NCBI RefSeq assembly: GCF_006345805.1
Contig: NW_021834429.1
Span: 1 to 48,318, forward strand
Length of the DNA stretch: 48,318 bases
Direction: 5' to 3'
Source of the DNA: Octopus sinensis
Lineage: Eukaryota
Shown: piece by piece, positions 36,915-41,413 of the stretch
Position numbering within the stretch: the stretch's first letter is position 1
Layout: every line of letters begins with the position of its first letter
Made by a program: the position numbers and the translations under genes
Notes under the pieces: generated by a model
Databases searched by the model: none
Seen by the model: the letters and a program-made list of their open reading frames with translations, nothing else
What the model was told of the DNA's origin: nothing

Positions 36915-38295
36915 TCGTGTCAGTCTATGACTATATACAAGCTGTGAACCATTTACTGGGATGCTCTGGCGATGTATGCGTAAGATTGAATTCAGTTATG
37001 GATCAAAAGCAACGCTGGTGTTGTAAACATTCCCCGTTTCGATTTAGGGATCTAATGGTGATAATTCACAGAAATGGTAAAATATCGGTGTCCATCACTC
37101 CTGAAATTAATTGGAGGAGCGTTTGTCTGTCCTTGTCTATGACTTTCATGTGTTTTAACACCCAGCATCATGAGGTAGGGTGCCGTCGCCATCGCGCTAT
37201 GCGAATCACCCGGATAGCAAGCAAAATACGTACGTTAAGCATGTGCGGTCGATAAATGTGTGTATGTGTTCGCGCGTGCATGCAAGCAGGGCATAATGTG
37301 CTTGCTTCAAATAAAGACCTGCTCAAATTATTGTTGGTCAAGAACCAATATGGCAATCTTTTCTTCAGCACCATGCTACCTGTGCTCTTTATACTCTAAT
37401 TAACCGTGGTTTACTATGAGTCGGACGAAAAGAGACTGGTTACAATGCATAAAGGCATAGATTCATTTTAGGTATATCTGTGCGGACTGAAACGATGTGA
37501 TTCAAGAATGAAGTGGAGAGTCATGTGATCTTGCAAATACCTATTTCTTTACTGCCCACAAGGGGCTACACACAGAGGGGACAAACAAGGACAAGCAAAC
37601 GGATTAAGTCGATTATAACGACCCCAGTGCGTAACTGGTACTTAATTTTATCGACCCCGAAAGGATGAAAGGCAAAGTCGACATCAGCGGAATTTGAACT
37701 CAGAACGTAGCTGCAGACGAATTACCAATTTCTTTACTACCCACAAGGGGCTAAACACAGAGCGGACAAACAAGGACAGACAAACGGATTAAGTCGATTA
37801 TATCGACCCCAGTGCATAACTGGTACTTAATTTTATCGACCCCGAAAGGATGAAAGGCAACGTCCACCTCGGCGGAATTTGAATTCAGAACGTAACGGCA
37901 GACGAAATACCTATTTCTTTATTACCCACAAGGGGCTAACCACAGAGGGGACAAACAAGGACAGACATAGGTATTAAGTCGATTACATCGACCCCAGTGC
38001 GTAACTGGTACTTAATTTATCGACCGCGAAAGGATGAAAGGCAAAGTCCACCTCGGCGGAATTTGAATTCAGAACGTAGCAGCAGACGAAATACCGTTAA
38101 GCATTTCGCCCGGCGTGCTAACGATTCTGCCAACTCACCGCCTTGCAAATACCGTTGGTATAATTTCTGCAAAGTAAGACACGTTAAAGGGTTCACAGAC
38201 AGGTGAACCCGTACTGCCGTCGAATGGTATCCAAAAGATCGTAATAAGTGCTTTAGAAGACATGAAATAGGATGGGAATCGGACATTGTCAAAGA
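36915..38295 (+). pseudogene. Decayed RTE-clade LINE reverse transcriptase/C-terminal relic
   Basis: DYIQAVNHLL (RT N-part), NLFFSTMLPVL at 37355, LGISVR, EWYPKDR..WESDI at 38222. All resemble RTE ORF motifs in the correct order. Confidence 0.6.
37542..38143 (-). mobile_element. SINE family C with one head and three tandem ~185-bp bodies
   Basis: TSD cttgcaaatacc at 37530-37541 and 38142-38153. Confidence 0.92.
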
Positions 38296-39503: not shown

Positions 39504-40036
39504 AATTAATGTCCATATCTGACACTAAATTTGTATGCTTAAAGTGATATACCCTTTATGATACACCTCTTGAAAACTTCGCAAAATATGGCCTAAAATT
39601 ACATCCGAAGATGTCACTTGATCGAGGTATGAAGCGCAAATTGATCAATATAATAATTACTGATCCGTTTTGCTAAGATAGGTGGATTAACTTATTATCC
39701 TTTAAAAAAATCCCTTGGAAAGCCAACTTCCAAACTCACTAACGGTCATGTTGTTTGTTGCTCAATAAACGTTTGTGAAATATCAACACCAACGTCCATG
39801 CTCTTTTTGTTTAATTCTTTCTTTATTGGTAACAGAGTTAATTTATTTCTATAAGCCACGTCTAATCAACTAGAAGTAATTAGTCATTGTCACTTGCAGT
39901 GCAACTTACTAAACTGAAACGTAAGAACACATGGGATAATGTAGTCCTTGATAACCCATGTCAGAAAAAAATGTCGGAATGTCATGGTTAAAACAACTTT
40001 GGGCTTCAACTAACCTGCAGTTAAACTACAATAACA

Positions 40037-40406
40037 CAGTTCTATATTTAAGAGATGAGGAATTATGTACATTATTTACATTTGGCGGATATTTGTCCTC
40101 ATCTTGTTTGTTATTGACACAATGTTTTGGCTGATATACCCTCCAGCCTTCATCAGGGGTCTTGAGGAAATTTCGAACCTGGATTCCCGTTCCTAAGGTA
40201 TTTTTCGATGTTGTTGTTGTTATCATTATTATTATTATTACCATTATTATTATTATCATAATTATTATTCAGGTCACTGCCTGATATCGAACTCGGAATC
40301 TTGGTGTTAGCAGTCCGCGCTCTTATCCACTACGCCATATGCCCGTTGTGTTAACAACAAACAAGATGAGGACAAATATCCGTCAATTGTAAATAATGTA
40401 AATAAT
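40037..40406 (-). mobile_element. tRNA-headed SINE with hammerhead-containing PLE-type tail and inverted tail copy
   Basis: Head 40344-40270 (A box TGGCGTAGTGG, B box AGTTCGATATC), (AAT)n, hammerhead 40161-40116, tail to 40037, inverted tail copy 40345-40406. Confidence 0.8.
40116..40161 (-). ncRNA. Minimal type I hammerhead motif (CpG-decayed copy)
   Basis: GACCC-CTGATGA-A-GGCTG-gagggtatat-CAGCC-aAAAC-aTT^GTGTC. The second copy keeps CGTT-GTGT. Confidence 0.7.
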
Positions 40407-40459
40407 GAACTAAAATAACTTCATTCAAAACACTTACTCGACTCCAAAACACTTACTCG

Positions 40460-40672
40460 ACGGCAAGCTGGCAGAATTGATAGCACGCCGGATAAAATGT
40501 TTGACGGCATTTCATCCGTTTTTACGTTCTGAATTCAAATTCAGCCGAGGTCGACTTTTCATTTCATCATTTCGGGGTCGATAGAATGAGTACCATTTGA
40601 ACATTGGGGACGATGTGATCAATTTAACCGCTTCTTCGAAATTGCTGGCCTTGTGCTAAAAATTTCAAAGCA
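40460..40672 (+). mobile_element. SINE family C monomer
   Basis: cggcaagctggcagaa..gccgaggtcgactttt..tttcggggtcgata. A duplicated 17-mer caaaacacttactcgac precedes it. Confidence 0.85.
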
Positions 40673-41002: not shown

Positions 41003-41413
41003 GGCGCAGGAGTGGTTGTGTGGTAAGTAGTTTGCTTACCAACCACATGGTTCCGGGTTCAGTCCCACTGCGTGGCACCTTGGGCTTGTGTCTTCTACTA
41101 TAGCCTCAGGCCAACCAAAGCCTTGTGAGTGGATTTGGTAGATGGAAACTGTAAGAAGCCCGTCGTATATATGTATATATATATATGTGTGTGTGTGTAT
41201 GTTTGTGTGTCTGTGTTTGTCCCCCTAGCATTGCTTGACAACCGATGCTGGTGTGTTTACGTCGCCGTCACTTAGCGGTTCGGCAAATGAGAGCGATGGA
41301 ATAAGTACTGGGATAACAAAGAATAAGTCCTGGGGTCAATTTGTTCGACTAAAGGCGGTGCTCCAGCATGGTCGCTGTCAAATGACTGAAACAAGTAAAA
41401 GAGTAAAAGAGAG
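41003..41413 (+). mobile_element. SINE family A, full length
   Basis: ggcgcaggagtgg through aaaagagtaaaaga. Confidence 0.92.

Follow-up and report, generated by a model that had tools for sequence, protein, structure and literature searches.

A SINE-like insertion of Octopus sinensis, best explained as a solo pseudo-LTR of a Penelope/Poseidon retrotransposon with a tRNA-like head

Anatomy of the insertion and its family

The window, which is the whole stretch of 48,318 nt of Octopus sinensis DNA that was analysed (GCF_006345805.1, NW_021834429.1; 2.7-Gb host genome), contains at positions 40,037 to 40,406 a feature that a first-pass annotation had noted as a SINE with a tRNA promoter, a hammerhead ribozyme in its tail and an inverted end. 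Its parts are given below from the 5' to the 3' side of the minus strand, with names taken from the Penelope-like element (PLE) and its pseudo-LTR (pLTR), to which they are assigned in the following section.

40408..40419, minus strand: upstream copy of the target-site duplication (TSD), 12 bp, 11 of 12 alike to the downstream copy
40345..40407, plus strand: inverted, 5'-truncated second arm, family positions about 224-286, which ends at the short PLE end and is without the 26-nt tail
40270..40344, minus strand: tRNA-like head of the pLTR, likely RNA 5' end
40327..40337, minus strand: Pol III A box, which fits TRGCNNARYGG
40284..40292, minus strand: Pol III B box, final base altered in the window copy, intact in the family majority
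40213..40269, minus strand: (AAT)n/(AAC)n microsatellite, whose length varies
40036..40190, minus strand: first 52 codons of the PLE ORF, overlapping ribozyme and tail, frame open in the window copy
40116..40162, minus strand: minimal type I hammerhead motif, predicted cut between 40121 and 40120
40156-40150, minus strand: CTGATGA of the hammerhead
40148-40144/40133-40129, minus strand: 5-bp stem II of the hammerhead
40128-40121, minus strand: AAAAC-ATT of the ribozyme
40036..40061, minus strand: PLE 'tail', 26 nt, between the two fixed 3' ends seen in 105 arms
40024..40035, minus strand: downstream copy of the TSD, which pairs with 40419-40408

The A/B-box head, the (AAT)n stretch, CTGATGA with its 5-bp stem II, a tail without poly(A) and an inverted copy, all of them named in the first-pass annotation, were located on the minus strand, where the 3' part of the element runs to 40036 and poly(A) is absent. 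The motif TRGCNNARYGG, which the head matches, is taken here to be that of the Pol III A box. The inverted 61-nt copy at 40346-40406 is 92% identical to 40062-40122, and the ORF of the window copy starts with ACG instead of ATG. An anticodon-like loop is present as described, but its sequence, GGACTGCTAA, is specific to the window copy, the family majority having GGGCTACTAA. Other abundant short repeats flank the element, among them a 138-nt inverted pair (81%) at window positions 38003-38140 and 40461-40598, and a separate tRNA-like, SINE-looking repeat is found at 41020-41100.

A whole-genome search with the element gave 4,353 candidates, of which 40 were scored and show 82-90% identity, the window itself being excluded. 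The 28-nt ribozyme core has 3,504 exact matches in the genome and its reversed control has 0; since the core is exact in 17 of 92 arms that were picked independently of the core pattern, these matches correspond to roughly 19,000 ribozyme-bearing arms. The non-CpG divergence among copies is 4-5%. The unit is 312 nt long in the majority sequence of 30 copies, and the minimal hammerhead in it, ACAC-CTGATGA-A-stem II-GAAAC-GTT^GTGT, is intact and has a layout that matches the minimal hammerhead ribozymes of PLEs (Cervera 2014, PMC4209133).

The hammerhead core is intact in 57 of 172 copies. The two core changes of the window copy had been ascribed to CpG decay, which holds for the family: the majority is GAAAC-GTT, A occurs at the two sites in 44 and 51 of the 172 copies, and the two changes are the most frequent of the CpG decays. 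Stem I holds a third defect, which had been overlooked, and with three defects the hammerhead of the window copy is predicted to be inactive. Rfam and ARAGORN, when applied to the element, scored neither the head as a tRNA nor the ribozyme as a hammerhead.

Coding partner and insertion ends

Several copies share, 5' of the head, a sequence that codes for an endonuclease-like C-terminus, and a search with this sequence gave 2,959 candidates. The head stands right after the endonuclease stop codon in 26 of 29 independent copies, with its first 5-12 nt kept in 2 more, and a reverse transcriptase (RT) is coded upstream of the endonuclease (RVT_1, 40.4 bits in L200). At the other side of the unit the 'tail' continues into an ORF, as the frames of L238 (391 aa), L241 and L229 start in the pLTR, cross the ribozyme and reach the RT region. 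The tail of the window copy is in this same frame and matches the N-terminus of P0001, the nearest database protein, which has the same ribozyme-encoded N-terminus. The ORF opens in the 'tail' and closes just before a head, which identifies the 312-nt unit as the pLTR of a Penelope/Poseidon element.

The coding unit is 2,692 nt long and is ordered as head, (AAT)n, start codon, hammerhead, two fixed ends, the rest of the ORF (RT and putative GIY-YIG-type endonuclease), a 27-nt spacer and the next head. Partial tandems of the form pLTR-ORF-pLTR are present in L214, L237, L245, L247 and L250. The head lies ~150 nt upstream of the start codon, which is retained as ATG in 149 of 162 matched pLTR copies, and among the copies examined no single one was seen with an intact full-length ORF. 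One full-length insertion, found with the same flanks on four contigs (C9724, C9459, C8464 and C1; L216-L218 and L220), is attributed to segmental duplication or assembly redundancy and was counted once.

The RT, for which 128 PLE-like homologues were found, is 62% identical to P0001, 44% to an anole protein and 24-28% to Neptune-type PLEs of the same genome, and in the tree it is sister to P0001 with 100/99 support and separate from the Neptune type. Over their full length, the C-terminal 289 aa can be aligned with P0001 (55%) and with the anole protein (32%). The Pfam GIY-YIG profile had no match in L165; the residues VYSIPC...LYKGET...R...EH are visible in the C-terminal region and presumably represent a GIY-YIG-type endonuclease motif. 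The Neptune-type PLEs, 38 loci from a first Pfam GIY-YIG search, were considered as the partner and rejected, their flanks being unlike the tail, and were kept as controls.

The feature in the window is real and is, with high confidence, a solo pLTR insertion of this Penelope/Poseidon retrotransposon. The first-pass annotation had proposed a Penelope-like RT as the mobiliser, which agrees with an RT-coding partner in the genome that carries the same pLTR. The linkage of head and tail that it had predicted is also seen, since 26 of 29 head matches have the tail downstream and 26 of 29 tail matches share the insertion with a head. As for an ordinary LINE 3' UTR with TSDs, which it had named as contrary evidence, TSDs are present, including the 12-bp one of the window that had been overlooked, and the tail is PLE coding sequence and not of LINE origin; the presence of TSDs does not refute a PLE origin. 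A 3' end of SINE type, either borrowed from a LINE, A-rich or made of simple repeats, was considered and rejected, the 3' part being PLE coding sequence with two fixed ends.

These ends were defined in the first 70 of 100 listed core-pattern matches along contig C1, which after removal of one duplicate are 69 loci with 105 arms. The 3' ends of the arms fall at 305-312 (47), at 274-293 (55) and elsewhere (3), so there are two fixed ends, 26 nt apart. Arms on both strands, in head-to-head inversion, are found in 35 of the 69 loci, with one long and one short end in 30 of these, two short ends in 5 and two long ends in 0. A flanking repeat of at least 8 bp (9-13 bp, corresponding to TSDs of ~12 bp) is present in 22 of 34 two-armed loci and in 2.8% of mismatched flank pairs. 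An inverted arm and a tail at one end only are signs of PLE insertion (Craig 2021, PMC8557442; Arkhipova 2013, PMC3846280), and the PLE tail lies between two internal RT start sites (Frangieh 2024, PMC11167929). The 26-nt tail of the octopus element is slightly below the 30-40 nt described for PLE tails. With its two fixed 3' ends, inversions and TSDs, and a size of at least ten thousand copies, the family is a large natural data set on PLE insertion.

Transcription start, short copies and the hammerhead

The furthest 5' extent in the 69 loci, determined by automatic chaining that missed some interrupted copies, is the head start in 21, the endonuclease in 13, the inside of the head in 11, the microsatellite in 19 and the tail in 5. 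Among the 34 head-reaching loci, 21 stop in a 20-nt window at the head start, where 6-8% would be expected from neighbouring truncation rates (p 6e-18 to 2e-15), and the ORF-bearing copies L214, L230, L240 and L241 also begin at the head, so that the tRNA head is likely the RNA 5' end. In the majority sequence both boxes of the A/B pair are exact; shuffling the head produced such a pair once in 200,000 trials, and 306 kb of control Poseidon-like loci contained none. The search for tRNA-headed relatives among 79 Poseidon-like metagenome loci returned none, low-threshold ARAGORN calls being scattered and taken as noise. The A/B boxes are intact while the cloverleaf no longer scores in Rfam and ARAGORN. 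The head, which may resemble tRNA-Arg, has weak matches to phage sequence on annotated tRNAs (best E 0.05).

Considered as a whole, the insertion is best explained, with moderate confidence, as the solo pLTR of a Penelope/Poseidon element whose A/B-box head likely starts the RNA by RNA polymerase III. The features of the head itself point, with somewhat better than even probability, to a putative Pol III start of the RNA from which the short copies are made.

The strongest alternative, to which we assign a clearly lower probability, is an ordinary Pol II-transcribed Poseidon PLE, in whose 3' UTR a tRNA or tRNA-SINE fragment was captured once as a passenger and whose short copies are 5'-truncations that pile up at a palindrome through cDNA fold-back. 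A 10-bp palindrome does cross the 5' boundary of the head, fold-back junctions at it account for 8 of 38 unbiased head starts, and the 5' ends are spread over about -11 to +9 and not fixed at one base. Rotifer PLEs that lack tRNA heads also have palindromic pLTR 5' ends, together with TATA/Inr motifs (Arkhipova 2013, PMC3846280), so the pile-up at the head could come from RT fold-back. The short and long copies are moreover indistinguishable in sequence and age, and the deficit of TTTT runs described below is marginal. Translation would also be difficult from a Pol III mRNA of 2.7 kb that lacks a cap. The only Penelope promoter studied is a LINE-like internal promoter (Schostak 2008), and autonomous elements have been argued to require Pol II (Kojima 2024, PMC10886601). 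Against this alternative, fold-back junctions are missing from about 19 of the 38 unbiased head starts, whose ends lie at -1 to -11; both boxes fit the consensus while the stems have decayed, which points to promoter selection in the source lineage; and the head is placed where a PLE would be expected to have its promoter, ~150 nt 5' of the start codon.

In at least four copies that bear the ORF (L237, L245, L247 and L250), endonuclease sequence is present upstream, which means that some RNAs start further up, as expected from multi-unit RNAs. The 5' truncations of L161, L166, L168, L171, L172 and L174 lie near the AATTATGAAGAAAAG stretch of the ORF, ~555 nt upstream of the head; 5 of 29 copies fall within -554 to -563, and this cluster is a possible truncation hot spot or second RNA start. 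The cDNA RNA-seq on L247, from a relative (three raw runs) and a second organism (one contig set), covers both strands about equally and has no start or end peak in the pLTR; loose ends at the head start and at the long 3' end in the runs of the relative show that the family has the same boundaries there, and the coverage is uninformative on the polymerase. A search across sequencing runs listed no RNA data set with the element. This coverage is probably due to passenger transcription.

The sense strand of the 2,692-nt unit contains no TTTT run, an absence with P of 0.006 in a base shuffle, 0.028 in a synonymous shuffle of 614 codons and 0.075 in a dinucleotide (Markov) model; runs of four G are likewise absent. 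Real copies have 0.38 TTTT per kb versus 3.6 and 2.9 in two Neptune-type families, and the Poseidon-like controls, which are the 58 of 79 loci with a long single match, have a median of 3.1 per kb, with none in 2 of 58 and in 1 of 34 at matched T content. As a sign of Pol III read-through the deficit is suggestive only.

A more far-reaching proposal, which we regard as doubtful, is that of an autonomous coding retrotransposon that would be wholly transcribed by Pol III, the tRNA box of the upstream pLTR driving a terminator-free read of 2.7 kb, and internal RT starts on one RNA giving both the PLE and its SINE-like family. If true, this would be a SINE born from its own driver. A Pol III transcript of the full unit would contradict the assumption that autonomous retrotransposons use Pol II (or co-transcription by Pol I), and would leave the translation of an uncapped RNA whose ORF contains a ribozyme to be explained.

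The relation of short to long copies was evaluated in 130 head-start and 61 endonuclease-attached copies, which are ~1% of the family. In these sets no co-segregating diagnostic variants of a SINE-only subfamily were found, and the divergence of short and endonuclease-attached copies is equal (4.1% against 4.8%, p 0.25). One source lineage would be the simplest reading of both kinds of copies. Short and long copies probably come from the same source elements, so the family is SINE-like in form, with no independent SINE lineage detected. The separate SINE with a borrowed tail proposed in the first-pass annotation is not sustained, as the head belongs to the pLTR of the autonomous element, no SINE-only subfamily was found in the sampled copies, and short and long copies share sequence and age. 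A candidate subfamily of this kind, defined by G31A and a longer AAT stretch, seemed significant and was gone in unbiased sets.

That an independent tRNA SINE gained a PLE 3' end and was amplified via the PLE RT, the endonuclease-attached copies being later chimeras, is improbable. Short copies outnumber long ones and keep their own promoter, and the head variant G31A is found in 26 of 130 head-start versus 2 of 61 endonuclease-attached copies, but this variant reflects query bias, since unbiased sets have it in 4 of 68 and 1 of 60 copies, respectively (p 0.37). The lack of co-segregating SINE-only variants and the equal divergence also speak against such a lineage, as do the presence of the head in nearly all endonuclease-coding copies and the retention of the ATG start in the pLTR copies.

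In the favoured explanation, that of a PLE with a Pol III-type head, RNA polymerase III would start the element RNA at the tRNA-like A/B box that heads the pLTR, and the PLE protein would begin reverse transcription inside this RNA at the two fixed ends, by analogy with the mechanism of the anole Poseidon. A start of the RT at the first pair of ends, ~290-310 nt from the RNA 5' end, may give the short SINE-like copy, and a start at the next pLTR would give the long, mostly 5'-truncated copies. The second, inverted arm and the ~12-bp TSD would finish the insertion. A single transposon could in this manner give rise both to full-length copies of itself and to short, SINE-like ones by the thousand.

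The hammerhead comes from the PLE and has no part in fixing where insertions end. The inverted copy had been described as starting at the cleavage triplet, with ribozyme-defined ends, and a start of further inverted or tandem tail copies at the GUU site had been named as a check. This start is a coincidence of the window copy: 1 of 105 arms has its 5' break within 5 nt of the cut and 0 have a 3' end there, a count that largely refutes ribozyme-defined ends, which were rejected. The inverted arm is not a cleavage product, since it includes the GTT on the 5' side of the cut, and the 3' ends fall about 60 and 85 nt beyond the cut, as expected for two internal PLE RT starts. A retrozyme-like element with hammerhead-cut RNA ends, spread as unit-length or circular RNA, is very improbable, because the intact minimal hammerhead of the majority sequence and the proposal that animal retrozymes are PLE derivatives (10.64898/2026.07.22.740005) are outweighed by this break count, by copies that are dispersed and inverted and do not form tandem arrays with ends at the cut, and by the anole Poseidon, in which ribozyme cleavage is dispensable for insertion in vitro (Frangieh 2024, PMC11167929).

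Relation to known elements and to other families of the genome

PAc of Anolis carolinensis shares with the octopus element a single ORF for RT and C-terminal endonuclease, with its start in the pLTR and an overlap with the hammerhead, partial tandems, an inverted truncated arm, a tail between two RT starts and cleavage that does not define the ends (PMC11167929). The cited passages on PAc mention no tRNA head or Pol III promoter, whereas the pLTR of the octopus element opens with an A/B box, and solo pLTRs that start there are its commonest defined product.

The schistosome repeats SM-alpha and Sj-alpha, which are short and non-coding, also have a Pol III promoter followed by a type I hammerhead (PMC6765202, PMC8490949). 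They differ in being tandem repeats whose active ribozyme release puts the promoter at the 3' end, and the parts of these papers cited here name no autonomous partner. In the octopus element the promoter stays 5', the ends are of PLE type and the partner shares the whole unit.

The TRIMp3 elements Cassandra, Helenus and Ajax have a Pol III promoter derived from a small RNA in their terminal repeat, with the boxes kept and the tRNA non-functional, and are non-coding LTR elements of 0.3-1.3 kb whose autonomous partners are argued to need Pol II; the sections of that paper cited here report Pol III promoters in terminal repeats solely from non-coding elements (PMC10886601). The octopus element, in contrast, has the promoter motif in the terminal repeat of the coding element itself and is of the PLE class. 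Animal non-LTR retrozymes (10.64898/2026.07.22.740005) and the Chlamys-dependent MRC1 (PMC8557442) are likewise short, related to pLTRs and proposed to be moved by PLEs; the retrozymes form tandem arrays, and a tRNA or promoter is not mentioned in the cited parts of their description.

The class had been thought undescribed in the first-pass annotation, which is too broad, since a Pol III promoter followed by a hammerhead is known from the schistosome SINE-like elements. The narrower claim stands: no description of a tRNA promoter that heads a coding PLE was found in the literature, repeat databases (Repbase, Dfam, SINEBase) being outside the scope of that search. Such an element is not described in the cited parts of Cervera 2014 (PMC4209133), the Octopus vulgaris annotation (PMC13282606, including one supplement) and PMC8967140. 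The short form may already have a name. In 1994 Ohshima and Okada reportedly described the tRNA-derived octopus SINEs OR1, OR2 and OK, and the short form may be among them, in which case only the PLE link and the ribozyme would be new.

The partners of SINEs are normally LINEs. In the octopus genome, a SINE-like family with a tRNA head shares its sequence with a Penelope-like driver that itself contains the head, and this provides a concrete case for PLE-mobilised Pol III elements, a role proposed for the schistosome SINEs and retrozymes without a partner being named in the accounts cited. It also cautions that animal repeat libraries list some PLE ends as 'tRNA SINEs'.

Other PLE-related sequences were observed beside the studied family. 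Among the control Poseidon-like loci, L295:3001-4906 and L296:137-2401 are ORFs without a TTTT run and without an A/B-box head. A young Neptune-type family (L063 at G000:C1:207472500-207480000, L064-L066 and L068) carries a hammerhead variant and a 1.6-kb pLTR; many of its 781-aa RT-GIY-YIG frames are intact, a further ORF of 479 aa lies upstream, and L063 itself is a near-perfect tandem (99.7%). L067 belongs to a second Neptune-type family, and L033 and L048 (~1500-1780) code for GIY-YIG with a zinc-finger-like linker and represent a further family, which is neither of the two Neptune families nor the studied element. A different hammerhead motif (CTGATGAG...GAAACTCGAGT), located in an unrelated short repeat upstream of a PLE at L067:5500-5580 and L034:2610-2690, is possibly another ribozyme-bearing family of the genome.
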